A model generated the notes under the pieces. The model did not search any database. It worked only from the letters and a program-made list of their open reading frames with translations, and was not told the DNA's origin. This document shows positions 8,514-60,619 of a DNA stretch of 64,000 bases, piece by piece (the first letter of the stretch is position 1; every line of letters begins with the position of its first letter). Origin of the DNA: a virus. The DNA is taken from the IMG/VR virus record IMGVR_UViG_3300022910_000005, positions 1-64,000 of that record, one strand, 5' to 3'. The position numbers were made by a program, and so were the translations under genes.

Positions 8514-9006
8514 TCTTCACCGCCTTGTCCAACTGGCTCCAATTGCAATTCATGACCAGGCGGCGATTCTTCAGGATCATCCCGGAATCCCATCCGTTCT
8601 TCACCCAATGCCCGACGTACGTCATGTCGCCGTGCTGAATGACGACCCGGACGGAATCCACGGGGCCGACCCGTTCGCTGCCGACCTGTTTACGAGCAGC
8701 CTTTCCAGTGGGCGTCTCCTCGCCGGTCGGTTCCATGATCGCAACGCTCAACGGAAGCCCGGTCGACGGAGTGATGTCCTCACCGACGGCGTGCGTGATC
8801 CGAACGTTCGCGCGCATCTCGATCCCCAACGTTGCGAGACGGCGAGCGTTGGGCGGAACGATCGGAGCGTGGGCCGTCACCTCGATCGCTCGCTGCACCG
8901 GCTCCGGATGAACGATCGCAACGTACGTCGTCTTGCCCCACGTTCGACCGTCGACCGGAACGCTCTCCAACGTTGGGTCGAGGTGAGCGTTGTGATCGTC
9001 AGCCAC
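8443..9006 (-). CDS. hypothetical protein
   Basis: GTG at 9006 overlapping upstream stop; contains AACGTT cluster. Confidence 0.6.
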   Translation of the reverse strand: MADDHNAHLDPTLESVPVDGRTWGKTTYVAIVHPEPVQRAIEVTAHAPIVPPNARRLATLGIEMRANVRITHAVGEDITPSTGLPLSVAIMEPTGEETPTGKAARKQVGSERVGPVDSVRVVIQHGDMTYVGHWVKNGWDSGMILKNRRLVMNCNWSQLDKAVKNAKSEADLRGESDGQLQMSFPGN

Positions 9007-9403
9007 CGCAGAGCCTCCGGAACGAATCCATCGCAACGTTGTCGGGTCGAACGTTGAACTGGACGTGGGCCGGTGCGACGAACGTTCGGTTGAACCGGCT
9101 GCGGCTGTCCGTCTCACGGAAGTACTCGCCGATGTCAACGAACCGGCCAGCGTTGACGGCGTAGCGATGCGGTCCAGCCCGGCCGACGCGGTGACGGGCG
9201 GCGGCGCGCGCGACGAGGATCACCGGCCCTCGGCCCGGCTCGCCGTCCGCATCGTCCTCGATCACCCACCAGGCGGACATCCCGGCCAGGGGCTTGGCTA
9301 CCGCCCAGATCCGCCCGTAGCAGTCCGTCTCGTCGCCGTTGCCGTCGATGTCACGCCACGTAATGGACTTCGGCTCGCTTGCGGGGGGTTCTCTGGTTGC
9401 CAT
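8999..9403 (-). CDS. hypothetical protein (leaderless)
   Basis: minus-strand GTGACA-N18-TAGGAT promoter immediately upstream. Confidence 0.6.
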   Translation of the reverse strand: MATREPPASEPKSITWRDIDGNGDETDCYGRIWAVAKPLAGMSAWWVIEDDADGEPGRGPVILVARAAARHRVGRAGPHRYAVNAGRFVDIGEYFRETDSRSRFNRTFVAPAHVQFNVRPDNVAMDSFRRLCGG

Positions 9404-9536: not shown

Positions 9537-9624
9537 CTGTCACAGGTGTCACAGGCAACTTATTAGTTTTCTAGCAGATTTTGCCTCGCAGGGAACGAAT
9601 CTAGAGCCTGTGACACCTGTGACA
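9537..9624. repeat. 88-bp origin-like element copy 1
   Basis: TGTCACAGGTGTCACAG / CTGTGACACCTGTGACA inverted arms around an AT-rich core; 5 mismatches to the copy at 45617. Confidence 0.9.
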
Positions 9625-10968: not shown

Positions 10969-11750
10969 GACCAGACCCGCTGGACGGACTTCAGTTCGGT
11001 CTGCCGCCCGTAGTGCTTGTGCTCGACGTGCGCGGCAACGACAGCGTTGACGGTGACCTCCTCGCCGAGTTCGACAACGTTGGCCCACGCGGCGCTGCTG
11101 GTCATCTTCAACGCTGACCCGTCGCTGGCCTCCAGGATCACCAGAACGTTCGGCTTCCGCTCGCCGTAGCGACTGGGCAGCGTTGCAACGTTCGTGACGC
11201 GACCGGCGAACGTTCCGCCCTCCCCAACGCTGCCGACGTAGGAACGTTGCGGCGTCTCGAACGCTTCGCTCAACGCTCGGTCCAGCAGGAGGCTGACGGC
11301 GTAACGTTCCTGCGTAACGTTGAGGGGCATCTGGATCGCACGCAGCGCCAGCGACAGCAGCGTCGGATCAACGTTGCGGTCGCTGCCGGAACGTACGACG
11401 GCCAGCAGGTAGGCCACATCAGGCACGCGGGCGGCCCATTCGTCGATGTCCGCGAGCCTTTCCAGTTCCTTCTTCTTGGCGTATGTCATGGGCGAGTTCT
11501 CGAATCGGATGCGCTTGCGCAGCACCTCCTTCATGCGGAATTCCGATCCGGCGAGCCGGAGGATTTCTGATCCACCGCAGCGCGGGCAGCGGTCATGGTC
11601 GATCCCCGGGCAGAATTCGTACCAGGCGTCGTTCTCGGCCTTCAGGAGGGTTTTACCGTTGACGTCGTAGGCGAGGTATTCCTGTCCGTTCATGGGCCAG
11701 CGGGGATCGTGAAGGAGGGTCGGGCTGATCGCGATGGTTGAGGTTGGCAT
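10965..11750 (-). CDS. phage protein with predicted C-terminal OB-fold (leaderless)
   Basis: YVGSVGE...SRYG...GEEVTVNAVV..H...GRQTEL pattern; promoter 11758-11786. Confidence 0.65.
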   Translation of the reverse strand: MPTSTIAISPTLLHDPRWPMNGQEYLAYDVNGKTLLKAENDAWYEFCPGIDHDRCPRCGGSEILRLAGSEFRMKEVLRKRIRFENSPMTYAKKKELERLADIDEWAARVPDVAYLLAVVRSGSDRNVDPTLLSLALRAIQMPLNVTQERYAVSLLLDRALSEAFETPQRSYVGSVGEGGTFAGRVTNVATLPSRYGERKPNVLVILEASDGSALKMTSSAAWANVVELGEEVTVNAVVAAHVEHKHYGRQTELKSVQRVWS

Positions 11751-19787: not shown

Positions 19788-20684
19788 GTGAAGAAGAACC
19801 GCCGCCGCATCCTGCCGACCGTCGGCCGGATCTGGGGCTACCTCGGTGTGGCCCTGGCGCTGGGCACCAGCCTGGCCGGGAACGTTCAGTCCGCCCGCCT
19901 GCACACCCCGCTGGTCGATCCGTCCTGGACGGAGTACGCCTTCAGCGCCCTGCCGCCGCTCGTTGCGTTCGTCGGCATCGAACTGGTGAATCACAACCCG
20001 TGGACTCGCATCTGGTGGGGCAAGTACATCACCCGGGTGCTGTTGTTCGTGGTCGTGCCCGGCAGCGCTCTGGTGTCGTTCGCTCACCTGACGCTGGTCG
20101 GCTTGGACGCTTCAGCGGTGAAGGTGCCGGACGGGTTGCAGGACGTGCTGAACATCGCGACGGCGATCCTCACGTCGCTGTTGGTGGACGGCATGATCCT
20201 GGGCGGTACCGGTGCGCTGCTGCTGCCGACGAAGGTGGAGGACGAGCCGGAGGTGGTCGACGTGGTGCCGGTGGCGGCGATCGAGGCTTACCCGGACTGG
20301 CGTGGCGAGATGGAGCGCCTGCTGGCGACCGGGCGGACGGGTGAGCAGGAACTGCTGGGCCGCATCGCCGCCCTGACGGAGAAGATCGAGAACCTCCCCG
20401 TCGCCCCGGCGCCGACCCCCCGGCGCGAGAAGGTCGTGAAGGCGACCCTGGCTCCGCAGGAGTCGCAGGACAAGAAGGACCAGGTCCGCTGGCCGATCGG
20501 CACGCACCCGCTGTGGAAGGCGTGGCTGGCGGCCCGGGGCACGAAGGACGCCTGGGACGCCGACCGGTACGTGCTGGAAACGAAAGAGCACCTGCACCGC
20601 GACATCAAGCAGAGTGCCGGGCAGACGGCGCTCAACCGGTGGGAGAACGCACTGAAGGCGGACCCGAGCCTGCTGAACGCCTGA
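19788..20684 (+). CDS. DUF2637/SpdA-like multi-TM protein with coiled-coil C-terminus
   Basis: about 4 TM segments; SLAGNV, ALPP, VSFAHL, LLVDGM patterns. Confidence 0.7.
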   Translation: MKKNRRRILPTVGRIWGYLGVALALGTSLAGNVQSARLHTPLVDPSWTEYAFSALPPLVAFVGIELVNHNPWTRIWWGKYITRVLLFVVVPGSALVSFAHLTLVGLDASAVKVPDGLQDVLNIATAILTSLLVDGMILGGTGALLLPTKVEDEPEVVDVVPVAAIEAYPDWRGEMERLLATGRTGEQELLGRIAALTEKIENLPVAPAPTPRREKVVKATLAPQESQDKKDQVRWPIGTHPLWKAWLAARGTKDAWDADRYVLETKEHLHRDIKQSAGQTALNRWENALKADPSLLNA

Positions 20685-20699: not shown

Positions 20700-20765
20700 A
20701 AGCCCGGCCAGCCCCGCCGCTGGCCGGGCTTTCGTTTGACAGGCGCATGACAAGGGTAGTAATGT
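20700..20765 (+). terminator. GCCCGGCC terminator followed by TTGACA promoter
   Basis: AAGCCCGGCCAGC...GCTGGCCGGGCTTT then TTGACA at 20736. Confidence 0.75.
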
Positions 20766-20799: not shown

Positions 20800-21081
20800 A
20801 TGAAGAACCTCCGCAGCGTCGTCCTGTCGCTCGGCCTGGTCGCTGGCGTCGTCCTGCTGTCCGCCTCCTCCTGCGACGAGGACAGCAAGTACAGCCAGCA
20901 CAACAACGACGCTCCGACCGCCAAGGGCAACCACGACAAGGCCGACGTCGGCTACATGCCGGACGGCTTCAGCAACTACGCCACGAAGTGCGACCGGCCC
21001 GGCATCCGGGTGTACGTCCTGTTCCACGAGGACGGCGCGTTCGGCTCCATCAGCGCCATCGCCGACCCGGCCTGCAAGTAA
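20800..21081 (+). CDS. putative lipoprotein
   Basis: hydrophobic leader ending SASSC. Confidence 0.65.
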   Translation: MKNLRSVVLSLGLVAGVVLLSASSCDEDSKYSQHNNDAPTAKGNHDKADVGYMPDGFSNYATKCDRPGIRVYVLFHEDGAFGSISAIADPACK

Positions 21082-21468
21082 TGGCCGCCGACCGCCGCAA
21101 GGACACCAGCGAGGCGCTGACCGAGATCCGCACGGTGCACAGCCGCGCCTGGTCGGCGCTCGATCGGCTGGCCATGAACAACGGCCTGAGCGAGACGCGC
21201 CGGATCGAAGCGTCGTACGACGAGGACGGCGAGTACGTCCCGCCCAGCATCGAGAACTACCGCGACCCGGACGCCGACGAGATGGTGGCTGCCCTGGAGG
21301 CTTTCGTGGCCGCCACCGCCAAGTGGGCGAACCGCAAGCGTAAGGGGCTCTGATGGATCACTGGTACTGGGCCGGTGGATTTCAGGTCGCCGTCTGGGGA
21401 ACGCTCATCCTCCAGGTCGCCACGGGCATCGTCCGTAGCATCGTCAGGGCGGCGAAGGAGGGCAAGAA

Positions 21469-23136
21469 GTGAGCCAGACGAAGATCACCGGCAGCCTCCG
21501 GCAGCAGGTGTTCGACATCCGGCAGAACCCGCGCAAGCCGTCCGAGTTCCGTTGCGACGGCTGCGGCAAGTACTTCGTGCGCACGGCGCTTCAGGTCGAC
21601 CACATCGTCCCGGAGGCGGACTCGCGCCCGGAGGACCGGCTGGACCCGGACAACCTCCAGTTGCTCTGCTACACCAAGGGCTCCACCCGCTGGAATTCCT
21701 GCCACAAGCGGAAGACCTACGAGGAGCATCGACGGCGTGCGGTCCGCAACCGGCCGAAGAAGGACTGGGGGCCGTTCTGGCGGCGGGCTGCCGTGTGCGG
21801 CCTGGTCTTCCCGGCCACCTGGAACTTCTGGGTCAACGGTCAGCAGGAGATGATCGACGACCTGGTGAACGGCGTGCTGATCGAGGCCACCCTCTTCTCC
21901 ACCTATTTGGTCCAGAAAGGTTGGCGGATGCGCCGCCCCCGGCGGATCATTTCGGCCGACCCGGAAATGCTCGACGAGCCCGGCCAGGAGGAGGCGATCG
22001 ACACGCAGCGGATCGTCGAAGCAGCCCGCGAGGTGATGGGCCTGAAGGGCAGCGTGACCGCCCGAGGTGGCCATGAATCGTTCGTGCTGTCCTACGCCGG
22101 AACAGGTTTCGCCGACCATGAGTCGGACAAGCGGTGGAGCCTCCAGGAGAAGATCACCGCGAAGATCGGCGACCGGTGGATCGTCGACTGGAACACGGCG
22201 GAGGACAAGGCCACGTTCACCCGCCGACCGCCGCTGCCGCGCAAGGTGCATCATCCGGGCCTGGACCCGAAGCGGAAGTGGCACGTCCTGCCCGTCGCTG
22301 ACGGGGCCGAGTTCGACCTGCTGGTGACGCCGCACATCCTGATGGCCGGGGAGACGATGTCCGGCAAGACGGCCATGATGCGGGCGATGCTGATCGCCGC
22401 CAGCCAGTCGGCCGCGACCAACGACAACGTCGAGATGAACCTGCTGGACCCGAAACAGATCGAGATGATCGGCTTCCAGGGCTGGCCGGGCGTGAAGAAG
22501 ATCGTCACCGACCCGCACGACCTGTGGGCCTTCGCGATCGGCATGAAAGCCGAGATGGACCGCCGGTACCGGGAAGTGAAGGCTGGCCGGGCGGTGATGT
22601 CCCAGTTCAAGAAGATCATTAACTTCTGGGACGAGCAGGAAGAGTTCTACAACGCCATGCTGGAGTTGTGGCAGAGCGGTGAGAAGGACGAGAACGGTGA
22701 GCCGTACAAGCGCTCCGGAGAACGGGTTCCGCGTGCAGTGCGGGCCGTGGCCAGCCTGCTGGCCATGTCCCGTCGGTGCGGCATCCACAACGTGATCGCC
22801 ACGCAGTCACCGGACGCGCTGATCTTCGGCAAGTCCGGCGTCCGCCAGAACATGCCCGGCCGGGCCAGCGTCGGCGCGATCGACGGCATCCGGGCGGGCT
22901 GGCTGTATGGCGACAGCAGTGTCGGCCGCGACATCCCCTCGAACCTGAAGGGTCGCGCGACGATTCAGATCGGCGACGGCAAGCCGTTCGAGGTGCAGAC
23001 CTTCTGGGTGCCGGACCCGTCCGACGGCGACGCGAACTACGACAACGACCAGGAAGACTGGGCGACCCTGCTGCGGCTGGGGATGCCCACCGAACAGTTG
23101 CCCGAGAAGTTCAATCACCTGCTGGAGGCGGCGTGA
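21469..23136 (+). CDS. HNH-TM-FtsK/SpoIIIE (TraB/TcpA-like) DNA translocase fusion
   Basis: CDGC..LQVDHIVP..DNLQLLC..CHKRKT (HNH); two hydrophobic segments; HILMAGETMSGKT, DPK, EMDRRY, WDE, IATQ (FtsK). Confidence 0.88.
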   Translation: MSQTKITGSLRQQVFDIRQNPRKPSEFRCDGCGKYFVRTALQVDHIVPEADSRPEDRLDPDNLQLLCYTKGSTRWNSCHKRKTYEEHRRRAVRNRPKKDWGPFWRRAAVCGLVFPATWNFWVNGQQEMIDDLVNGVLIEATLFSTYLVQKGWRMRRPRRIISADPEMLDEPGQEEAIDTQRIVEAAREVMGLKGSVTARGGHESFVLSYAGTGFADHESDKRWSLQEKITAKIGDRWIVDWNTAEDKATFTRRPPLPRKVHHPGLDPKRKWHVLPVADGAEFDLLVTPHILMAGETMSGKTAMMRAMLIAASQSAATNDNVEMNLLDPKQIEMIGFQGWPGVKKIVTDPHDLWAFAIGMKAEMDRRYREVKAGRAVMSQFKKIINFWDEQEEFYNAMLELWQSGEKDENGEPYKRSGERVPRAVRAVASLLAMSRRCGIHNVIATQSPDALIFGKSGVRQNMPGRASVGAIDGIRAGWLYGDSSVGRDIPSNLKGRATIQIGDGKPFEVQTFWVPDPSDGDANYDNDQEDWATLLRLGMPTEQLPEKFNHLLEAA

Positions 23137-23463
23137 GTAAGGAAAACGCACCGACCGACGATCGTCATCCGTGGTGCGACACCTGCAAGAGCCCGGCCGT
23201 CTGGAGGGAGGGCCAAGGCTGGATGCATTCGACGCCCGAGCATCCGTTCGGCGTTTGGTCCGACACGTCCGGCCACGAGGTGACCGCCCGCGAGTGGAAC
23301 GCGAAACCACGACCAGGATGGGAGTTCTGATGGCAGTCTGCGAAGGCTGCGGCAGCAAGCGCGGCAAGAAGATGCTCGACCCGTACGAGGAGGACGTGAA
23401 CGACAAGAAGGTCGAGGTCGTCCTCTGCAAGAAGTGCGTTGAGGCTCTCTGCGAGGAGATCTG

Positions 23464-23904
23464 ATGGCGGACCTGCCGACACCGGAGACGGTGGTCCTGG
23501 AGTGGCGGAAGTTCGCTGCGGCACAGCAGATCCCGGTGAACATGCTGGAGAACCTGGAGTTCAGCGTCCATCATGACCACTTCTTCCGGCTGCTGCTGAT
23601 GCGGCTGACGAAGTCCGTGCTGGCTGAGCATCTGGCTGAGGAGGAGTACAGCGCTCGCGCTCGCTTCCCGGCCACCTGGTGGGACCACTGGAAGGAGACG
23701 CATGGGCAGACCTGGCTCGGTCCGCTGTGGATGCGGAAGTGGCCGCCCCGCTTCACGTATCGGGAGGCGACGATGAAGATCGAGCATGCCTTCCTGTATC
23801 CGGAGGCGAACGTCCCGCGTCCGCCAGACATCGGCAAGCCCGTTCGTTACGACCAGATCACCGGACCGTACTGGACCGACGAGAACCAAGGAGACACGCA
23901 GTAA
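23464..23904 (+). CDS. hypothetical protein
   Basis: TGATG coupling. Confidence 0.6.
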   Translation: MADLPTPETVVLEWRKFAAAQQIPVNMLENLEFSVHHDHFFRLLLMRLTKSVLAEHLAEEEYSARARFPATWWDHWKETHGQTWLGPLWMRKWPPRFTYREATMKIEHAFLYPEANVPRPPDIGKPVRYDQITGPYWTDENQGDTQ

Positions 23905-24342
23905 ATGAGCACCAAGACTGGTCCCGCGCACGGCACGTCACGCCGGTACGGCGACCCTCGCTGGATGTGCCGGTGCGACGTGTGCACGGACGGCAATTCC
24001 CGGCGCGCGAAAGAGGCGCGGGACAAGCGGTTCGGCCAGGAGCCGCCGGAGCATGGCGCGTCCGGCTACGCGAACTACGGCTGCACCTGCACGGTCTGCA
24101 CGGAGGGCAACCGGCAGATGCTGGCCGACAAGCGGAACGCGGCCGGACCGGGCGTCAACCGGCGCAAGGAATGGACGGACGCGGAGATCAAGAAGATCAC
24201 CGCGAAGAAGGACGGCCGCCGGTACCAGAAGACGGCGTACCAACTGGCCAAGGAACTGGGCCGGTCGGTCGGTGCGGTGAACCAGCAGCGGTCCATGTGT
24301 AAGGTCAAGTCAGCCACGAAAACCCGCGCCCCCCAGCGGTAG
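23905..24342 (+). CDS. Cys/His-repeat protein with C-terminal HTH
   Basis: two HG...Y..CxCxxC repeats; TAYQLAKELGRSVGAV. Confidence 0.65.
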   Translation: MSTKTGPAHGTSRRYGDPRWMCRCDVCTDGNSRRAKEARDKRFGQEPPEHGASGYANYGCTCTVCTEGNRQMLADKRNAAGPGVNRRKEWTDAEIKKITAKKDGRRYQKTAYQLAKELGRSVGAVNQQRSMCKVKSATKTRAPQR

Positions 24343-45616: not shown

Positions 45617-45705
45617 CTGTCACAGGTGTCACAGCCAACTTATTGATTTTCTAGAGGATTTTGCCTCGCAGGGAACGAATCTAGAGCCTGTGACACCTGT
45701 GACAG
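45617..45705. repeat. 88-bp origin-like element copy 2, directly upstream of the primase-helicase
   Basis: same orientation as 9537-9624. Confidence 0.9.
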
Positions 45706-48743: not shown

Positions 48744-48811
48744 GCCCGCCACCTCGTAGTAAGAGGTGGCGGGCTTCTGCGTTGACAAGCGGTTGTCAAG
48801 TCTGTTACCTT
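48744..48811 (+). promoter_or_regulatory. terminator followed by the operator-promoter of the transfer operon
   Basis: GCCCGCCACCTC...GAGGTGGCGGGC then TTGACAAGCGGTTGTCAA at 48782. Confidence 0.8.
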
Positions 48812-48843: not shown

Positions 48844-49137
48844 ATGAACCACCTGCACACGCTGGCCGTGCTCGCGGCTGCCCCCAACATCAGCGTCGAC
48901 AAGATCAAGCAGTCGGCGCTGATGATTCTCACCGCCCTGATCTGCATCGGCCTCGCCTACATGACCCTCAAGGTCATCTGGAAGGACACCGACGACGGCG
49001 ACTACAGCAGCGTCGCGAAGAAGGTGCTCACCTCGATCATCGGGATGATCCCCTTCGTCATGGCCGGATCGCTGGCCATCGCCGCCGGGTGGGCGACCGC
49101 GCTGCTGAGCCTGCTGACCGGGCTGGTCTCGAAGTGA
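48844..49137 (+). CDS. pilin-like (VirB2/TrbC-like) 2-TM protein
   Basis: 97 aa, two long hydrophobic helices, first gene before virB3/virB4-like genes; GGAGG RBS. Confidence 0.55.
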   Translation: MNHLHTLAVLAAAPNISVDKIKQSALMILTALICIGLAYMTLKVIWKDTDDGDYSSVAKKVLTSIIGMIPFVMAGSLAIAAGWATALLSLLTGLVSK

Positions 49138-49946
49138 GCCCCGTGCAGCGGAACGACGACGACGGACGCCAGATCCGGCAGCCGTGGCTGGGCGCGAAAG
49201 GCGCACGCTGGCCGATGGACTGGACCTACGACGAGTGGGCGCTCGGCCTGTTCGGGTTCATCGTCGGCGGGACGCTGATCACCTGGGTGGTCCCGGCTGC
49301 CGTCATGGCGTTCATCGTGATCCGTTCCGCTGCACGGTTCATCTCGATCCGCAACAACCCGCACGCGCCCCGCAAGACGTACCTGCTCGTCGTGGCGATG
49401 ATGACGACGCTCTGCCTGATCCTGTCCGTCAACCCGATGTTCTGGCTCAAGCCGATCTTCCTGCCGTTCGCGCTGGTCGCGTCGCTGTTCATGCCCTCGC
49501 GCACCGTGAAGGCGTACGGCAAGTACGTCGGCTGGAACCGGCCGCTGTCCTACTGGATCGCCATGCCGTTCCGGATCGCCCGGGGGCCGCGCCTGGTGCC
49601 CACCGACACGATCAACCCGGCGATGCTCGGCATGGGCCTCGACCTGGAGAGCCTCGACCGCGATGACACGGCCGACCTGGTGCCCGGCCGGATCGTCACG
49701 ATCCCCCGGCTGAAGGCCCCGGCCAGGAAACCTGCGCCGCAGGCGCTTGCCCCCAAGCCCGTCAAGGCGACCATCACCAGCGCACCGAAGAAGACCGCCC
49801 GCGTCGCCCGCACCCCGCTGACCGAGCGCCGCCTCGTCGCACCGGGCGCTCCGGTCCGCCACCGCACCCGCAAGCAGAACCTGATCTACCGCACGCCGAC
49901 CGGCCTGATGGTCTTCGGCACCGAGTACCGGATGGAGAGCCGCTGA
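49134..49946 (+). CDS. VirB3/TcpE/PrgI-like membrane protein
   Basis: TM helices; immediately upstream of VirB4-like gene. Confidence 0.5.
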   Translation: MSPVQRNDDDGRQIRQPWLGAKGARWPMDWTYDEWALGLFGFIVGGTLITWVVPAAVMAFIVIRSAARFISIRNNPHAPRKTYLLVVAMMTTLCLILSVNPMFWLKPIFLPFALVASLFMPSRTVKAYGKYVGWNRPLSYWIAMPFRIARGPRLVPTDTINPAMLGMGLDLESLDRDDTADLVPGRIVTIPRLKAPARKPAPQALAPKPVKATITSAPKKTARVARTPLTERRLVAPGAPVRHRTRKQNLIYRTPTGLMVFGTEYRMESR

Positions 49947-52633
49947 TGGGCCTGTTCGCCGCCCCCAAGAAGACGACCTGGACGACACCGGTCCGCAAGA
50001 CGATCGCTCTCGCGCCGACGGCCAAGCAGGTGGTGCGCAACCTGATCCTGCTGAAGGACGGCAGCGTGCTGGCCGGTTACCGGATCGGCGACGCACGCTG
50101 GGACTTCACCGGCAAGGACGCGAAGATCATGCGGATGGACCAGGACGCGGACGTGTTCGCCGCGCTGGTCGGCCGGTCCTACCACGAGCGGGTCACCACC
50201 CGCCCGCACCCGGTCGCGACCTGGGCCGGGAACCTCGACAAGCGGACGCCACGCCCGACGCCCGACATCCACACCTGCGACCTGAGCGCGGGCCTTTCCC
50301 AGGGCGACCTGCTGAACGGCCGGTGCGGCTGCGAGACGTGGGGCCGTCACCTGATCCGCCAGCAGGACGTCATCGCCCGTTCCGGCATGAACGACAAGAT
50401 CGTCTTCCGCTACTTCGGCCTGACCGTGAAGGTGTCGCCGCGCACCGACCTTCGCAAGCAGATCAACGAGTTCGTGAAGACCGGCAAGGCGTCCGGCGTC
50501 GTGGCTCGGCTGATCGCCGACGAGAAGCGCGTCAGCGACATCGTGACCGGCTGGCCGGGCTCCAAGCGGATGAGCGAGTACGAGCAGGGCTGGCTGCGGG
50601 TCCGCTCGCTGTCGCCCGGCGTCATCCCCACCGGCATCCACAGCAAGGACCGGGGCGGCTGGGACGAACTGGCCCTGCCTGCCCTCGCGTCCGACACCCG
50701 GTGGGCCGAGACGCCTTTCGGCCGGACCGTGACCGTCACCTCGTTCGCCGACGGCAAGCAGGTCGAGTCGGCCGTGCGCGTGCTGACGATGGCGCGGATG
50801 GCCGACCTGAACTACCCGGAGAACGGGATGCCGCCGTGGCAGGTGCACGGCGAGTCCGTCCTGGACGCTTCCGGCCGCCCGTTCCCGGTGGAGTGGTCGG
50901 TCGTCGGCCGTCTGCGCTCCGGCGAGGAACTGGCCAAGGAGGTGGAATTCGAACTGCGGCGCGTCCAGCACGTCAAGGGCGACTACGAGGATCACAGCGA
51001 ACTGCCGCCGTCGAACGTCGGCAAGGCCATCGCCGTCGCCGTCGACACCCGCGACCAGGTCACCACCGGCCAGGCTGCTGTCGCCGCCAGGTTCCAGGGA
51101 CAGATCAACGTGATCATCTCCGGCCAGGCGACCGAGAACCTCACCGCCGAGCAGGTGGTCGAGGAGCGGTGCGCCGCGTTCACCCGGATGTACGCCAACG
51201 CTGGCCTGCGGATGGACTTCACCGGCTCCGACAGCCAGTCGTTCATGCTGGCCAGCACGGTGCCCGGTGAGCCGTACGACCGGCTCGGCTTCCAGCGTCG
51301 CCTGCGGCTGCCGTTCCTGACGGCCGGGATGCCGAACGTCTCCTCGTCCGTCGGTGACGGCGTCGGCCCGTACCTGGGCCACACCCGGGGAGCGACCCGG
51401 CGCGCGGTGCAGCACGACCCGCACTTCGCCACGGAAGGTCTGCGGACCGGCCGGGGCCAGAACATGCACGTCGTGCTCGGCACGCTCGGTGCCGGGAAGT
51501 CCGTCGTGACCGGCTCCATCGGCTACAACGCCGTCCGCCGGGGCATCCGCACGGTCATCTCCGACCCGTCCGGCCCGCTCGCGGCGCTGACGAAAATGCC
51601 GGAGATCGCGGACGTTTCGCAGGAGATCAACCTGCTGAACGGCGCGCGGGGCATCCTGTCCCCGGCCGCACTGATCCGCGACCCGCTGCTGACCGAGTAC
51701 GACGAGCCCGGCCAGTTCGCGGAGGCCCTGGGCCAGGCGGCGGCCGAGCGGCGGGACCTGATGGTCGACATGGCCAAGCGCTGCCTGCCGGACTACCTGA
51801 TGAAGGACCAGGCCGAAGCCCGCACGGAGGCGGCCCTGCGCCTGGCCGCTCGCCAGCACGCCGAGACGCGGGACGGCTGGAAGCAGACCGACACCATGTG
51901 GGACCTGATGCGTCCGCTGAAGGACAGCACCGACGACTGGGCGAAGGCCGTCCACGGTGCGCTGACGGACGCCTCCACCGCTCCGCTGCTGCGCCTCATG
52001 TTCCCGGAGCCGGGCGCTCCCGGCAGCATCGGGCACTACGACAAGACGCTCACGGTGATCACTACCCCTGGCATCGTGCGGGCCGTGGACGGCACGCCGC
52101 GCAAGGACTGGAACCCGCTGGAGGTCGGGGCCGACGTGGTGCTGCGCCTGGTCGGACTGTTCACCGACCGGCTGATCTACTCGAAGACCCGCAGCGAACG
52201 CTGCATCGCGATCTTCGACGAGGCCGAGTCGCTGACGGACTTCGGGCCGGGCCGGTCCATGCTGTCCCGGCTGGGCCGCGACCACTCCAAGTGGAACATC
52301 GCCGTCTACCTGGCCGTGAAAAGCATCAACCCGCAGATGCTTTCGGGGGAGTTGAAGAACTTCCTCGCCAGCGTGTTCGTCGGCCGGATGGCATCGCGCG
52401 AACCGGCCGAGGCCGCGCTGGAACTGCTGGGGCTGACCGACAAGCGGTACGCGCAGGTGCTCATGGGCCTGTCCACGTACGTGCCCGGCGAGTTCGTCCA
52501 CGCCGACGTGGCCGGGAACGTGGGGATGCTGAAGGTCGACGTGGACTACCACCCGGCCCTGAAGGACGCACTGCTGACCGACCCGACTCCGGAAGGCTCC
52601 GGCCACTGGACCCTTGAAGAGGAGATCGCCTGA
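49946..52633 (+). CDS. VirB4-like conjugative ATPase
   Basis: 895 aa; C-terminal GTLGAGKS, ISDPSG, IFDEAE, R.GR motifs; GPYLG upstream of the P-loop. Confidence 0.82.
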   Translation: MGLFAAPKKTTWTTPVRKTIALAPTAKQVVRNLILLKDGSVLAGYRIGDARWDFTGKDAKIMRMDQDADVFAALVGRSYHERVTTRPHPVATWAGNLDKRTPRPTPDIHTCDLSAGLSQGDLLNGRCGCETWGRHLIRQQDVIARSGMNDKIVFRYFGLTVKVSPRTDLRKQINEFVKTGKASGVVARLIADEKRVSDIVTGWPGSKRMSEYEQGWLRVRSLSPGVIPTGIHSKDRGGWDELALPALASDTRWAETPFGRTVTVTSFADGKQVESAVRVLTMARMADLNYPENGMPPWQVHGESVLDASGRPFPVEWSVVGRLRSGEELAKEVEFELRRVQHVKGDYEDHSELPPSNVGKAIAVAVDTRDQVTTGQAAVAARFQGQINVIISGQATENLTAEQVVEERCAAFTRMYANAGLRMDFTGSDSQSFMLASTVPGEPYDRLGFQRRLRLPFLTAGMPNVSSSVGDGVGPYLGHTRGATRRAVQHDPHFATEGLRTGRGQNMHVVLGTLGAGKSVVTGSIGYNAVRRGIRTVISDPSGPLAALTKMPEIADVSQEINLLNGARGILSPAALIRDPLLTEYDEPGQFAEALGQAAAERRDLMVDMAKRCLPDYLMKDQAEARTEAALRLAARQHAETRDGWKQTDTMWDLMRPLKDSTDDWAKAVHGALTDASTAPLLRLMFPEPGAPGSIGHYDKTLTVITTPGIVRAVDGTPRKDWNPLEVGADVVLRLVGLFTDRLIYSKTRSERCIAIFDEAESLTDFGPGRSMLSRLGRDHSKWNIAVYLAVKSINPQMLSGELKNFLASVFVGRMASREPAEAALELLGLTDKRYAQVLMGLSTYVPGEFVHADVAGNVGMLKVDVDYHPALKDALLTDPTPEGSGHWTLEEEIA

Positions 52634-54429
52634 TGTTGAAGGGTTTTCACCGCTACGTGCGGCTGGCCCAGTTATCGGTGGTGCTGATGCTGGTGGCGTT
52701 CGCACTGATCATCCACGCCGCCTCGGCCCACGCTTCCGCCCCGGCCGGGATCGACGTGCCGGGCGTGGAGGTATGCCCGAAGGAGGCACCGTTCGCGCAG
52801 ACGCCGGAGTCCGGGCTGGCCGGGCTTCTCGGTGAGCGTCCGCTGAAGATCACCACCGACAACTCCCCCGATCACATCTGGACGACGGGCGGCTTCGCTG
52901 GCCTCCAGTCGAACACCTACGACCTCGGCTGTGGCATGAACCCCGGCAACTGGGTGAAAATCACCAGCGCGCACACCGGTTCGTCGATGAGCAACTTCTT
53001 CCTGTCGGCCGGGGACTCGATGGTGTCGCTGACGGACTCGATCGACCGGCGGGCGTGGCAGCCGCAGTGGCTGCTGTCGTTCCTGGACGACTTCATGTTC
53101 CGGGTGACGGGGATGACGAACACGCTCATCCTGCTGCCGTTCCTGGGCCTGGCGCTGGCGCTGGTCGGAGTGATCCTCGTCTGGAAGTCCAACGATGGTG
53201 ACTATGCCGCTGCCGCAACGAGTGTCGGCTGGATCTTCATCGTCCTTGCCATCACGTCGCTGCTGGTGACGACGCCGCTGATCGTCGCGAAGTTCGGCAC
53301 GAGCGTCGGCTCCACGTCGGTCGCGGTGCTGAACGGCGGCGCGAACGCCTCCGACGCCGTCACCAACCAGGTGGTCAAGAACGTCGAGTACCAGGGCTGG
53401 CTGCGTCGCAACTTCGGCCCGTCGGACACGGAGGTCGGCAAGAAGTACGGGCCGGAACTGCTGGCGGCCAGCCGGGTTTCGTGGGCGGAACTGGACAAGG
53501 TCAACGCCCTGCCCGCCGACAAGCAGTCGCAGGCGCGTTCCGATCTGACGGACGCGAAGGCGAAGAAGTTCAAGGACATCGCCGCGAAGGTGAAGGACGA
53601 AGACCCGACGGCCTACAAGTACCTGACCGGTGAGATCATCGGCACCCAGGAGAGCATCGTCGAGGTGATCTTCCTGTTCATGGCGTGCGCGCTGCGGATG
53701 ATGGTGGCGATCCTGATGATCGCCTGCGTGATCAGCCTGGCCCTGATCAGCATCCTGTGGGTGCTGCTGACGCCGGTCCTCATCCAGCCGCCGTTCAAGA
53801 TGCTGGACGGGCGCACACTCGGCACCGGCCTGCTGAACGGTTCGATGCGCGCCCTGCTGTACGTCGGCGAAGCGGCGCTCGGCGCATGGCTTTACGGCTT
53901 CTTCCTCCAGGCGTGCATGGCCCCGGGCCTGAACCTCTGGTGGTCGCTGCTGCTGCTGACGATCGGCACGCTGATCGCCTGGTTCATGATCGGCCCGTTC
54001 GGCAAGTTGATGGCGATCCTGTCGCTGGGCCGGGCCGACACCGGAGCCTCCTACGTCGGCAAGGCCGTGAAGGGCGCGCTGATGGCCTGGGGCGGCGGCC
54101 TGATCGCCGGGCTGGCGGCGGCGAAGTCGGTCAACGATCACGAGGACGAGGAGCGGGCGGCGGCCCCAGAGCGGCTGTCTGAGACGATCCAGCAGCCGCA
54201 GGTCGTGCACGCCACCGTCTACAACCCGTGGGAGCACCAGATGGACGACACGGTGCGCACCGAGCACTTCCCCGACGCAGACCGGACGCTGCCGACCGGC
54301 GGCACCCCGGAACTGCCGATGTACCGGCGCGGTGCCGAACCGGCCCCGCCGCCGGACGAGACCGCCAGCCCGTACGCCACGTACGAGCGGGAAAGTTCTT
54401 CTGATGACAACGAGGGAGCGCACCTGTGA
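52633..54429 (+). CDS. VirB6/TcpH-like polytopic membrane protein
   Basis: signal-like N-terminus, multiple TM segments, low-complexity C-terminal tail; follows VirB4. Confidence 0.7.
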   Translation: MLKGFHRYVRLAQLSVVLMLVAFALIIHAASAHASAPAGIDVPGVEVCPKEAPFAQTPESGLAGLLGERPLKITTDNSPDHIWTTGGFAGLQSNTYDLGCGMNPGNWVKITSAHTGSSMSNFFLSAGDSMVSLTDSIDRRAWQPQWLLSFLDDFMFRVTGMTNTLILLPFLGLALALVGVILVWKSNDGDYAAAATSVGWIFIVLAITSLLVTTPLIVAKFGTSVGSTSVAVLNGGANASDAVTNQVVKNVEYQGWLRRNFGPSDTEVGKKYGPELLAASRVSWAELDKVNALPADKQSQARSDLTDAKAKKFKDIAAKVKDEDPTAYKYLTGEIIGTQESIVEVIFLFMACALRMMVAILMIACVISLALISILWVLLTPVLIQPPFKMLDGRTLGTGLLNGSMRALLYVGEAALGAWLYGFFLQACMAPGLNLWWSLLLLTIGTLIAWFMIGPFGKLMAILSLGRADTGASYVGKAVKGALMAWGGGLIAGLAAAKSVNDHEDEERAAAPERLSETIQQPQVVHATVYNPWEHQMDDTVRTEHFPDADRTLPTGGTPELPMYRRGAEPAPPPDETASPYATYERESSSDDNEGAHL

Positions 54430-54923: not shown

Positions 54924-55244
54924 GCCGGTCGCAGCGGAGGATAGAACTGGACCTGAAGTACGGAATTGTCACCATGATGATCGTCGAGGCGGCCTGCTTC
55001 GCCGTTCCGTTCTGGCTGCTGGTTGCGCTCGTCCGGTGGTGGGCGGCGTGAGCAACTGGGTGCCGCCGCACATTCCGATCCGGGACCATCCCGGGCCGCC
55101 CCGCTGCTGGATGTGCAACCGGCGGCTGCGCTGGTGGCAGATGACCACCTGCCGGACCTGCTCGCCGCACTTCCACGACTTCATGTGGCTGCACAACCAC
55201 ATGGGCCGCAACACGTTCGCCCCACCCGACCGATGGAGGAACCG

Positions 55245-56228
55245 ATGAAGATCTGGATCGCTGCGGGCGCAGCCAGCCTGGCCGGGCTCGTCGCGGTTCC
55301 GCTCGCCATCACCAGTCTGATGTTCGGCCCACCGCCGCTGCCCGCGCTCAGCATCGCCACCCAAGAGGTCTCCTCCTGCACGGTGCAGATCCCGGCCAGC
55401 GCGCGCACGGCCGGAGCACTGTCGGCCGAGCAGGTCGCGAAATATGCGTACGCGGCCGGTTTCCGTGGGCAGGACATCAACATCGCCGTGGCCGTGGCCC
55501 GCGCCGAGTCCGGCTGGCGGCCGACCGCAACCCTGCTGAACACCAACGGCAGCACCGACCACGGCCTGTTCCAGATCAACTCGATCCACGCGGCGATCCT
55601 CGCGGAAGGGAACTGGGCTGACCCGGCCGACAACGCGAAGATGGCGTTCAAGGTCTGGACGCAGGCGGGCGGCAAATGGTCCCCGTGGGTGACGTACTGG
55701 CGCGGCACCTACAAGCAGTACCTGACGGACGTCGACCCGAAACCCACCTGCACCACACCGAAGTCGACCGGCCCGTGCAAGAAGGTGAGCGGTGAGTTCT
55801 CCAACGGGCTCATCCCGGCCAGCGCGCTCTGCACCCTGTGGACCAACCGCCACCACCGCCTGCGGGCCGACGCCGCCAACTCGTTCGACGCGATGAGCCG
55901 GGCGTACATGGCGAAATTCGGTGTGCGGCTGTGCCTTACGGACTCCTACCGGCCGCTGTCCGTGCAGATCGACCTGAAGCGGCGGAAGGGTTTCCTAGCC
56001 GCGAAGCCCGGCACGTCCAACCACGGCTGGGGTCTGGCTGTCGATCTGTGCGCTCGCGGCAGCCAGGAGAACCCGCAGCCGTGGAACCGTGGCACCGAGG
56101 ACGACGTGTGGCTGCACCAGAACGCACCGAAGTTCGGCTGGGTCCACCCCGGCTGGGCTGAGCCGTCCGGCTCGAAACCCGAACCCTGGCACTGGGGTTA
56201 CAACCTCGACAAGGAGCACGCACCGTGA
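55245..56228 (+). CDS. membrane-anchored lytic transglycosylase + M15B D,D-peptidase (VirB1/TcpG-like)
   Basis: AESG...GLFQIN; SYR...PGTSNHGWGLAVD...EPWHW. Confidence 0.88.
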   Translation: MKIWIAAGAASLAGLVAVPLAITSLMFGPPPLPALSIATQEVSSCTVQIPASARTAGALSAEQVAKYAYAAGFRGQDINIAVAVARAESGWRPTATLLNTNGSTDHGLFQINSIHAAILAEGNWADPADNAKMAFKVWTQAGGKWSPWVTYWRGTYKQYLTDVDPKPTCTTPKSTGPCKKVSGEFSNGLIPASALCTLWTNRHHRLRADAANSFDAMSRAYMAKFGVRLCLTDSYRPLSVQIDLKRRKGFLAAKPGTSNHGWGLAVDLCARGSQENPQPWNRGTEDDVWLHQNAPKFGWVHPGWAEPSGSKPEPWHWGYNLDKEHAP

Positions 56229-59507: not shown

Positions 59508-60619
59508 GTAATGGCCTCCTCGCACCGCAGGCGCGTGTGGTCGCCCTGCACGTTCACCAGCGGGATCGTTCCGCTGATCACCTTGTACCGGCCGTCGGTG
59601 GACGAACGGTTGTCGATCACGTTGATCACGTCGTAGATGTCGTGGCCGGGATGTCCACGGGTGAAGATCTCGACCTCCTGCTTCATTCCGCTGACGCGGG
59701 GCAGGGTTTCAGCAGCGATGGCGGCGGCCTGCACGTCGTTGACGATGATGTCGGACCAGACGCCGTACGGACGGCGGCCGAAAGGTCCGTCCGAATAGGT
59801 GGCACTGTTCGGGTCCGTGTCCCACAGTTCAGCGCGGATCGGCAGGTAGTCGGGATGCTGGCCGCGCACGATGACGCCGGAGTAGACCGCGTCCACCGGC
59901 CGGAACCTCCTGGACACATTCATCAGCACGCTGTGCAGACCGGTGGTGTACGTGACCCCGGTGTCCACTTCGGTGATCGGTTCGACGACCGCCTGCCCCA
60001 ACTGGTCGAAATAGCAGACGTACGAGGATGCTTCGCACAACGCACGGATCGCATCCCACGGCGACGTCAGCCGGTCGAACACCACCTCGGGCGTCACCCA
60101 CGCTGACGTGGTGACGCGGATGGCGACCGTCGGCATCCGGGCGGCGATGATCGCTGCGATGGCCGTGTGGATCGGCGTGCCGTCCTCCACCACCCACGGG
60201 TCCTCGAACCGCCTGCTGCGCAACGAGTCGACCCGGTCGAACCCCTTGATCTCCACGACGGTGCCGTCCGAGTGCGAACGCACCTCCGGCTCGCTGATCC
60301 CGAACACGCCCATCGGAACGTATTCGTAGCCGGACACTCCTTCGTCGTCGGTCACCCACAGACCGCGATAGATCTTCAGTTCCGTGCCTTTTGGCGTGAG
60401 CAGGTCGGTCGCCTTCGTGGGCGTCAGTTCGCCGTCCGCGTCGCTGATCGTGAAGTGGGCCTCCCGCCGCACCGCAACGTCGTCGATGCCGATGTAGCCG
60501 GAGATCAGCACGTCCAACGTTGTGATGAGCGTGTCCGCGTACAGCACGTCGATCTTCGTCGACCATCTCCGGGTGGAGTCGAGCAGCGCAAGGTCGAACG
60601 CCTTGCTGGTCCTCCACAC
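59504..60619 (-). CDS. minor tail / baseplate hub protein (DUF5047-like)
   Basis: VRR, LLTP.G.E...YRG, VPMGVF, YSGVIVRG, GPFGR motifs. Confidence 0.8.
   Translation of the reverse strand: MWRTSKAFDLALLDSTRRWSTKIDVLYADTLITTLDVLISGYIGIDDVAVRREAHFTISDADGELTPTKATDLLTPKGTELKIYRGLWVTDDEGVSGYEYVPMGVFGISEPEVRSHSDGTVVEIKGFDRVDSLRSRRFEDPWVVEDGTPIHTAIAAIIAARMPTVAIRVTTSAWVTPEVVFDRLTSPWDAIRALCEASSYVCYFDQLGQAVVEPITEVDTGVTYTTGLHSVLMNVSRRFRPVDAVYSGVIVRGQHPDYLPIRAELWDTDPNSATYSDGPFGRRPYGVWSDIIVNDVQAAAIAAETLPRVSGMKQEVEIFTRGHPGHDIYDVINVIDNRSSTDGRYKVISGTIPLVNVQGDHTRLRCEEAIT

Follow-up and report, generated by a model that had tools for sequence, protein, structure and literature searches.

The virus record IMGVR_UViG_3300022910_000005 of IMG/VR encodes a protein of 555 amino acids (aa) in which an HNH nuclease, a two-helix hydrophobic hairpin and an FtsK-type ATPase are joined in one chain. 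The window analysed here is the first 64 kb (positions 1 to 64,000) of this record, which is 80,684 bp long, is derived from a leaf-litter metagenome and is rated complete by CheckV; the fusion gene lies at 21469-23136. The fusion is read here as the coupling or translocase ATPase of a plasmid-derived DNA-transfer machine with VirB4-like, VirB6-like and hydrolase components, with the HNH nuclease fused at its N-terminus, and we put the probability of this reading at roughly 55%. Gene transfer by conjugation and gene transfer by phage infection are generally regarded as distinct processes. To process its DNA, a conjugation system is generally held to require one of two devices: a relaxase, for single-stranded DNA, or a TraB-type sequence-reading pump, for double-stranded DNA. 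Full-text literature searches gave no account of a coupling protein that joins HNH and FtsK, nor of a tailed phage that has its own VirB4 machine, and papers on Streptomyces phages mention 'FtsK-like proteins' in lists only (PMC11536984).

The argument has three parts. DNA is taken as the substrate because the HNH nuclease is fused to the motor. A membrane location is proposed because the hairpin is conserved. A partnership with the VirB4 operon of the phage is argued from the ancestry of the motor together with one-to-one co-occurrence. The fusion is the only candidate coupling motor for the plasmid-type conjugation channel of the phage.

Domain layout and conservation of the fusion protein

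The earlier note on this DNA had described an HNH domain, two hydrophobic segments and an FtsK ATPase within one protein. Pfam, the AlphaFold2 model and the homologues agree that this fusion is real and conserved. The features of the gene are listed below, with the evidence in parentheses.

21455-21461, plus strand: Shine-Dalgarno sequence AAGGAGG, strong, 7 nt 5' of the GTG start of the fusion gene (read directly)
21469-23136, plus strand: HNH-hairpin-FtsK fusion gene, 555 aa (open reading frame, translation)
21469-21747, plus strand: HNH (beta-beta-alpha-metal) nuclease domain, aa 1-93, with the Pfam core, aa 29-83, at 21553-21717 (Pfam, conservation)
21769-21921, plus strand: two-helix hydrophobic hairpin, aa 101-151, putative membrane anchor (AlphaFold2, hydropathy, charges)
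21925-21987, plus strand: disordered linker, aa 153-173, with a basic start (RRPRR) and then acidic (predicted local distance difference test (pLDDT) <50, poorly conserved)
22003-22224, plus strand: small alpha/beta domain ahead of the motor, aa 179-252 (AlphaFold2; common to the plasmid FtsK-type relatives)
22285-23028, plus strand: FtsK/HerA-superfamily motor ATPase, aa 273-520 (Pfam, PHROG)
22348-22371, plus strand: Walker A, aa 294-301 (within the motor)
22630-22635, plus strand: Walker B DE, aa 388-389 (within the motor)

The open reading frame has a GC (guanine plus cytosine) content at third codon positions of 0.91, which is the typical codon bias of this high-GC sequence, and the N-terminus 'MS.TK' is kept in homologues. 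The translation contains the motifs C29xxC32, VDHIVP (43-48), NLQLLC (62-67) and CHKRKT (78-83). The Pfam HNH family PF01844 (His-Me finger) scores 36.7 bits over aa 29-83 (cut-off 21.4), and matches with E values around 1e-10 were obtained to several PHROG HNH families. Among solved structures, the HNH endonuclease 5h0m is the top sequence match of this domain (E 1.9e-5). The motor is matched by Pfam FtsK_SpoIIIE PF01580 at aa 281-372 with 48.9 bits (cut-off 24), and PHROG 1358 'FtsK/SpoIIIE-like' widens the ATPase match to aa 282-516. By profile, Walker motifs and conserved arginines, the protein belongs to the FtsK/SpoIIIE/HerA superfamily of translocases.

The AlphaFold2 model is a single chain built on 26 homologues, with a mean pLDDT of 86.9. 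The hairpin is modelled as two helices, aa 101-123 and 125-151 (pLDDT 72-79), and a short helical tail follows aa 520. At the position of the membrane anchor proposed in the earlier note, several homologues have segments that are clearly transmembrane-like (Kyte-Doolittle up to 2.5); in this orthologue the hydrophobic signal is weak. The sequence before helix 1 and after helix 2 is rich in K/R, and the connecting loop is acidic. This charge pattern fits an N-in/C-in topology with both domains in the cytoplasm, as had been suggested for a transmembrane hairpin.

A word-indexed search of 5.8 billion proteins returned 36 homologues with the same length and architecture (36-97% identity), all of them metagenomic and several on contigs of 74-79 kb. 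Conservation was scored in an alignment of 26 homologues (37-85% identity). The invariant residues are C32, D44, H45, N62, C67, C78, H79 and K82 in the HNH domain and G299, K300, T301, D388, E389, T445, P448, D449, R459, N461 and R465 in the motor; C29 (HNH) and Q446 (motor) are conserved in at least 90% of the sequences. The HNH set comprises the catalytic His (H45), the structural Asn (N62), the metal-binding His (H79) and four zinc cysteines (C29, C32, C67 and C78). With its catalytic set invariant, the HNH domain appears catalytically intact, and inactivity, which the earlier note had considered, is not suggested by the sequence.

More distant relatives were collected by an exhaustive HMMER search of 1.84 billion cluster representatives, which gave 7107 matches, 71 of them <1e-30. 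About 20 clusters align with the fusion over its full length. The other relatives are 500-900 aa long and align from about residue 150-225 onwards, and many of them have two hydrophobic segments N-terminal to Walker A. The Pfam HNH family was found in 22 of the 54 nearest representatives. A profile built from the HNH of the family itself matches 67 of 196 proteins, degenerate 'C..CH..KT' remnants are present in many others, and the consensus of the 700-975-aa relatives also reads as HNH; the HNH labels of divergent members are based on a regular expression and the family profile.

Some relatives have additional domains. In the 891-aa homologue P0012, an intein with homing-endonuclease domains (about residues 303-625) breaks the Walker A P-loop. 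P0064 (950 aa) and P0082 (975 aa) combine the hydrophobic pair and the FtsK motor with a C-terminal FtsK gamma domain; their HNH was detected by Pfam in P0064 and by the motif expression only in P0082.

The HNH end is carried by no record in the cultured-phage or plasmid collections, and neither the fusion nor P0064, the longer HNH-FtsK-gamma relative, is covered to 80% or more by any record there. One 13-kb contig of a metagenome-assembled genome, with phage-like neighbours, was the only carrier of the HNH end among 185,579 species genomes. A metagenome scan returned two short fragments of the sister clade only.

Motor ancestry and the VirB4 operon of the phage

Among plasmid proteins, the top matches of the fusion are FtsK/SpoIIIE-domain proteins (25-31% identity) from plasmids of actinobacteria, among them Gordonia, Streptomyces, Rhodococcus and Cutibacterium. 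The FtsK-type protein of the Gordonia plasmid pPAE01 is 27% identical over aa 74-516 of the fusion (E 1e-32). These plasmid relatives are 690-780 aa long, have other N-termini and lack HNH. In Gordonia terrae pPAE01 (CP049837.1; L105) and in the plasmid of Streptomyces sp. 891-h (NZ_CP050694.1; L106), the same VirB4 operon adjoins the FtsK-type gene. In these two plasmids and in pNFX87a, VirB4 is followed by a large membrane protein, an optional small protein and a hydrolase. The order in Promicromonospora pNFX87a (NZ_CP183414.1; L029) is an AAA_10 ATPase (970 aa), a 652-aa protein, an M23 peptidase and the FtsK-type protein, and in Mycolicibacterium an SLT hydrolase precedes the FtsK-type gene. 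A VirB4-like open reading frame (ORF) lies 4-9 kb upstream on the same strand at 8 of the 11 nearest GTDB loci; the other three have <6.5 kb of upstream sequence.

MOB-suite types pPAE01 and the Streptomyces sp. 891-h plasmid as 'non-mobilizable', that is, without a recognised relaxase. Plasmids typed in this way are here shown to carry a VirB4 and FtsK-type machine homologous to that of the phage. Plasmids with a VirB4-like ATPase, a polytopic protein, a hydrolase and an FtsK-type protein (pPAE01, 891-h, pNFX87a) look like an under-described class of conjugation system without a recognised relaxase. To our knowledge, this actinobacterial plasmid system is uncharacterised.

The top Foldseek match of the fusion in the PDB is TcpA of pCW3 (6o1x; E 1.4e-16, target TM-score 0.60), followed by the FtsK motor 6t8o (E 8.6e-14). 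The TcpA profile match spans the whole motor (aa 281-519), and direct comparison with TcpA gave 25% identity over 251 aa (E 5e-11). In a tree of the motor domains, TcpA (pCW3) grouped with pIJ101 Tra and chromosomal FtsK, outside a 184-row ingroup (FastTree, support 99). The ingroup was split into an 81-row clade, which contains all four plasmid or chromosomal proteins with a link to a T4SS (type IV secretion system) and is without HNH, and a 99-row clade (support 99), which contains every HNH-bearing protein. On this topology, the HNH-bearing motors are one clade, sister to the plasmid T4SS motors, and the nearest cellular relatives of the fusion motor are the FtsK-type ATPases that end actinobacterial plasmid VirB4 operons. 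The nuclease-hairpin-motor design is common to a monophyletic group of about 99 sequence clusters. The label 'TraB-type' given in the earlier note was not borne out: the nearest proteins are the plasmid VirB4-operon ATPases, the structural likeness is to TcpA, and the DNA-recognition domain at the C-terminus of TraB is missing.

The VirB4 operon of the phage contains the following genes.

48844-49946, plus strand: two small proteins (97 aa and 285 aa) that open the transfer operon (GC-frame ORFs; without Pfam or PHROG family)
49946-52633, plus strand: VirB4-like ATPase, 895 aa, AAA_10 (Pfam AAA_10, E 7.6e-19)
52633-54429, plus strand: polytopic membrane protein, 598 aa, VirB6/TcpH-like by position (plasmid homology)
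54426-54923, plus strand: 165-aa operon protein (conserved in the related contigs G001, G002 and G003; without Pfam family)
55023-56228, plus strand: cell-wall hydrolase, SLT_3 lytic transglycosylase plus VanY/M15 peptidase (Pfam)

Here G000 denotes this phage genome, and G001, G002, G003, G009 and G010 are related IMG/VR contigs. The VirB4-like protein is 28% identical, end to end, to the 903-aa ATPase of the Streptomyces sp. 891-h plasmid (E 1e-90) and 22% identical to TcpF (E 3e-12). The 598-aa polytopic protein is homologous to the 848-aa protein after VirB4 on the Streptomyces plasmid (E 5e-38) and is kept in all related phages. The 285-aa protein is conserved in G001, G002, G003 and G009, and the wall hydrolase in G002, G003, G009 and G010 (44-57% identity). 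By these similarities, the operon is homologous to the VirB4 operons of actinobacterial plasmids.

Co-occurrence of the fusion with the VirB4 operon, proposed earlier as a check, was found to be one-to-one in all related genomes that are near-complete. IMG/VR contained three more contigs with a full-length relative of the fusion, and each of them also encodes the polytopic protein and the VirB4-like ATPase. G001 (78% complete) has a full-length HNH-FtsK relative together with homologues of the VirB4-like and 598-aa proteins. A reverse search with the VirB4-like alignment gave five more viral contigs; both of those that are at least 90% complete have an FtsK-type match, and the three without one are all 36-62% fragments. 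In sensitive profile searches, near-complete G000, G002, G003, G009 and G010 each had exactly one FtsK-type and one VirB4-like gene.

G000, G002, G003 and G009 have 31-44 of 103 genes in common, with terminases 69-78% identical and GC contents of 58-67%. The shared genes, the diverged terminases and this span of GC content indicate that the fusion and the VirB4 operon are old core traits of the phage clade, and the GC span argues that both have long been retained. A diverse clade of soil phages would thus have long kept a plasmid-type mating channel and a motor with its own nuclease. The provirus G010 (85 kb) is only distantly related to this clade in terminase and portal. At 25.4-36 kb of G010 (L116 631-3980), the VirB4-like, VirB6-like, hydrolase and 782-aa FtsK-type genes form one contiguous block. 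A C...C...HH...CxxHH string was seen by eye in the 782-aa protein, but Pfam and the family HNH profile were negative. After the block comes a 334-aa protein that begins with membrane helices, continues with a long, charged, coiled-coil-like stretch and has a helix-turn-helix-like C-terminal end.

The earlier note had seen neither relaxase nor VirD4 in the window, and the same was found for all 80.7 kb of the genome across the seven tested families. Searches of the whole of G000 with Relaxase, TrwC, Rep_trans, MobA_MobL and Mob_Pre gave nothing at E <= 1, and control genomes matched each family. T4SS-DNA_transf (VirD4), Phage_integrase and Resolvase likewise gave no match at E <= 1 in G000 and were matched in control genomes. 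Within the families tested, the phage therefore appears to lack a MOB P/F/T/Q/V relaxase, a VirD4 and a TcpM-like tyrosine recombinase.

The replicon itself is, by gene content, a complete tailed actinophage. Its structural genes include large terminase, portal, protease, scaffold, major head protein, adaptor, tail genes and endolysin. Genes of replication type are a primase-polymerase/D5 helicase, another helicase, an exonuclease and endonuclease VII; no tRNA gene was found in the genome. The nearest cultured terminases are those of Arthrobacter phages (about 55% identity), and all matches are actinophages. A role of the fusion as packaging motor was rejected, since the phage brings a large terminase, portal, protease, scaffold and head genes of its own, all at a distance from the fusion.

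Further features were recorded near the fusion gene and in front of the operon.

20736-20753, plus strand: phased heptamer pair TTGACAGGCGCATGACAA, promoter-like, after a hairpin and upstream of the gene block 20800-24342 that holds the fusion
20800-21081, plus strand: 93-aa putative lipoprotein gene, signal peptide ...LLSASSC, first gene of the fusion's block (without Pfam family)
48782-48799, plus strand: the same heptamer pair, exact match, in front of the VirB4 operon

The pattern TTGWCAA-N4-TTGWCAA occurs at 21 sites in window positions 293-48799 (e.g. 4154, 35836, 42983, 48782), against 0.12 expected by chance. The pair is pseudo-palindromic, and in most cases it comes after a hairpin and shares bases with a TTGACA -35 box. 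It resembles a promoter/operator class that serves non-structural genes across the phage. A simple scan for sigma-70 promoters and terminators around the fusion gene gave nothing beyond chance. A 52-53% identical copy of the 93-aa lipoprotein gene lies at a different place in G003. The upstream 298-aa membrane protein (19788-20684) was considered as a DUF2637/Spd-like partner and rejected, since neither the plasmid DUF2637 protein nor the G010 neighbour is significantly similar to it.

Proposed role, points against it and rival explanations

In the proposed mechanism, the two-helix hairpin would hold the protein at the cytoplasmic face of the membrane, with both termini inside. The FtsK-type domain, as in its family, would form a ring and pump DNA, driven by ATP, towards the channel of the VirB4 operon. 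The HNH domains, placed between the ring and the membrane, may nick or cut the loaded DNA. Such a cut could, for example, provide an end for end-first transfer where phage DNA is replicating or concatemeric, or could terminate transfer. The cargo might be the phage's own genome, which would reach a neighbouring cell or hyphal compartment with neither virion nor relaxase involved. The options that we infer for the HNH include nicking, cutting replicating DNA to generate an end, cutting to terminate transfer, and the destruction of wrong DNA. Replacement of a relaxase by the HNH, the idea of the earlier note, is possible and not required, because the plasmid systems homologous to that of the phage do without HNH and have no recognised relaxase.

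A fuller scenario is tentative, and the odds are against it: a clade of tailed actinophages would spread its genome by virions and also by a built-in conjugation-like channel, with the HNH of the motor making the initiating or terminating cut and double-stranded or nicked DNA being pumped end-first into nearby cells or hyphal compartments, independently of relaxase or receptor. This would be a route of infection that needs no virion.

Several observations weigh against the fusion as the coupling ATPase of the transfer machine. The hairpin of this fusion is marginally hydrophobic (Kyte-Doolittle 19-residue peak ~1.0). No FtsK_gamma (winged helix-turn-helix, wHTH) C-terminal DNA-recognition domain was found in the fusion by Pfam or in the AlphaFold2 model. 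In G000, G002, G003 and G009, the fusion gene lies 13-27 kb from the VirB4 operon and outside it. Since the plasmid homologues presumably work without HNH, the nuclease is not an obligatory part of the machine; relaxase independence may be a property of the whole system class, with the HNH as an addition rather than a substitute. The relatives of the fusion are all metagenomic and uncultured, and the motor-domain trees carry SH-like (Shimodaira-Hasegawa-like) support only. The phage lacks an integrase and looks lytic, and a donor cell would therefore be short-lived.

The candidate regulatory and target sites belong with these points. Specific co-regulation of the fusion with the VirB4 operon was rejected: the heptamer motif also precedes about 19 other units, and most of the remaining plus-strand units have it, so that the shared motif shows a common temporal class instead. 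The earlier note had offered an 88-bp element and clusters of AACGTT as targets of the fusion, and neither was found in the four related phages that keep it. AACGTT occurs at 27 sites in G000, against about 7 expected, with clusters at 8803-9081, 11076-11370 and 60516-61419. G002 has 0 sites, and G003, G009 and G010 have no clusters; the clustering is therefore judged to be lineage-specific and not tied to the conserved fusion. The 88-bp element is present in G000 as two direct copies (9537-9624 and 45617-45704; 94% identical), in which inverted arms of TGTCAC repeats surround an AT-rich core. No counterpart was found in the four related phages, either by sequence or by arm architecture.

The main rival, which we consider unlikely, is that the fusion is a conflict weapon, in which a captured membrane FtsK-type ATPase with a nuclease would cut superinfecting phage, incoming plasmid or host chromosome, like the DndH/SspH class. 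Pairs of a nuclease and an FtsK-type ATPase have been proposed to intercept DNA that is being pumped, replicated or packaged (PMC10853773). The position outside the VirB4 operon in four clade genomes and the plasmid motors without HNH would agree with such a role. A known defence system was sought with PADLOC, which returned SspH and mad8 matches in the ATPase region only (aa 283-465, E 2e-9 to 2e-7); the neighbouring genes match nothing. These matches could be taken in favour of a weapon, but they span the generic P-loop region only, and no Dnd/Ssp partner architecture was seen. Moreover, the fusion is the sole FtsK/VirD4-type ATPase beside a complete mating-pore operon, which would otherwise be a channel without a coupling motor. 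The FtsK-type gene of G010 stands directly after the operon, and the motor is sister to bona fide operon-linked plasmid motors.

An enzyme of DNA metabolism or host takeover, which would process replicating phage DNA or degrade the host nucleoid while the VirB4 operon serves another role, is improbable. Its nearest relatives are motors of conjugation operons and not replication proteins, its co-occurrence with the VirB4 operon is strict, and a membrane location is suggested by the hairpin, which is conserved between the nuclease and the motor and strongly hydrophobic in many homologues. The idea draws on papers on cultured Streptomyces phages, which place FtsK-like proteins next to replication genes and guess a replication role (PMC11536984), and on the location of the fusion gene in the early/middle plus-strand region, where its promoter class is common with replication genes. 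However, the FtsK-like proteins of cultured phages are 26-28% identical over the ATPase and lack HNH.

We give slightly less weight still to a TraB/SpoIIIE-like septal pump that acts alone, moving double-stranded phage DNA across hyphal cross-walls or into spores, in the way that TraB of Streptomyces moves plasmids, with no need of the VirB4 machine. The FtsK family pumps double-stranded DNA, TraB-type transfer is known from Actinobacteria only (PMC3548315), the plasmid-phage pZL12 is a precedent, and pIJ101 Tra is weakly similar to the fusion (26% over 163 aa, E 3e-7). Yet the tree puts pIJ101 Tra outside the ingroup, a wHTH/gamma domain for clt recognition is missing from the C-terminus of the fusion, and the fusion is always accompanied by a VirB4 operon, unlike TraB systems.

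It is very improbable that the HNH is a selfish or vestigial passenger of the homing-endonuclease type, although phage genomes often carry HNH genes as mobile passengers (PHROG HNH matches), or that the ATPase drives protein rather than DNA secretion, although FtsK-like ATPases also power type VII secretion (EccC/EssC matches), since the HNH is always N-terminal and in frame with the same hairpin between it and the motor, its catalytic residues are invariant in the 26 aligned homologues and its diverged motif persists through the 99-cluster clade, and the EccC-type matches are weaker, cover the P-loop region only and face a single ATPase domain unlike EccC.

The coupling-ATPase reading has consequences if the machine does move phage DNA. 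It would allow receptor-independent viral spread in actinobacterial mycelia or cell chains, and it would add a third way of handling the DNA-processing step in conjugation.

Comparison with known systems

The actinobacterial plasmid VirB4 operons are homologous to the phage system in the alpha/beta domain and motor of the fusion and likewise in the partner genes. Plasmids and phage alike have a VirB4-like ATPase, a large polytopic protein, a small protein and a wall hydrolase, and neither has a recognised relaxase or VirD4. FtsK-type relatives beside VirB4 operons are also present in Mycolicibacterium, Kribbella and Cellulomonas genomes. The plasmid FtsK-type gene adjoins its operon, whereas the fusion gene in four clade phages does not.

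TcpA of Clostridium perfringens pCW3 (PDB 6o1w-6o1z) resembles the fusion in having N-terminal membrane helices followed by one FtsK-type ATPase. Its partners are the VirB4-like TcpF, the hydrolase TcpG and the VirB6-like TcpH, and the phage holds one of each type. In contrast to the fusion, TcpA has no nuclease domain and uses the relaxase TcpM, encoded next to TcpA; the phage is without such a relaxase. The HNH of the fusion is not a relaxase fold; relaxases are of HUH, Rep_trans or tyrosine-recombinase type, nick DNA at oriT and become covalently attached to its 5' end. The fusion is thus TcpA-like in architecture and partner genes, but it appears to stand outside the TcpA clade and without a dedicated relaxase. 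TcpA homologues have been reported in Firmicutes only (PMC3548315).

The TraB/Tra proteins of Streptomyces (pIJ101, pSVH1, pSG5) are actinobacterial FtsK-like motors of relaxase-free DNA transfer. TraB moves double-stranded DNA (PMC3548315, PMC3583192), and TraB-type transfer is known only in Actinobacteria (PMC3548315). TraB reads clt repeats by a C-terminal wHTH, has Spd partners, acts without VirB4 and has no HNH, whereas the fusion lacks the wHTH and is always found with VirB4.

The linear plasmid pELF2 of Enterococcus faecium, a partial precedent, has an FtsK-type TraD, the VirB4 analogue TraC as a second hexameric ATPase, the polytopic TraG and no nickase (PMC13492992). A model of end-first transfer of double-stranded DNA was proposed for it, and its tra operon includes a gene for a non-specific nuclease, orf1 (PMC13492992). 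The nuclease of pELF2 is a separate gene and not an HNH fusion, TraD has no membrane helices, and pELF2 is a plasmid of Firmicutes and not a phage.

The Streptomyces plasmid-phage pZL12/phiZL12 is a phage that also transfers conjugally, for which it needs a tra gene (title of Zhong et al. 2010; PMC3583192), and pZL12 has been described as a large plasmid-prophage with ParAB (PMC4487206). The terminases of possibly pZL12-like Streptomyces plasmids are 25% identical to that of this phage.

Defence proteins with captured HerA/FtsK (DndH/SspH class) also combine ATPase and nuclease domains, with the ATPase taken from mobile elements (PMC10853773). Their domain order and their partners are different, and the fusion sits in a phage that keeps the cognate channel genes.

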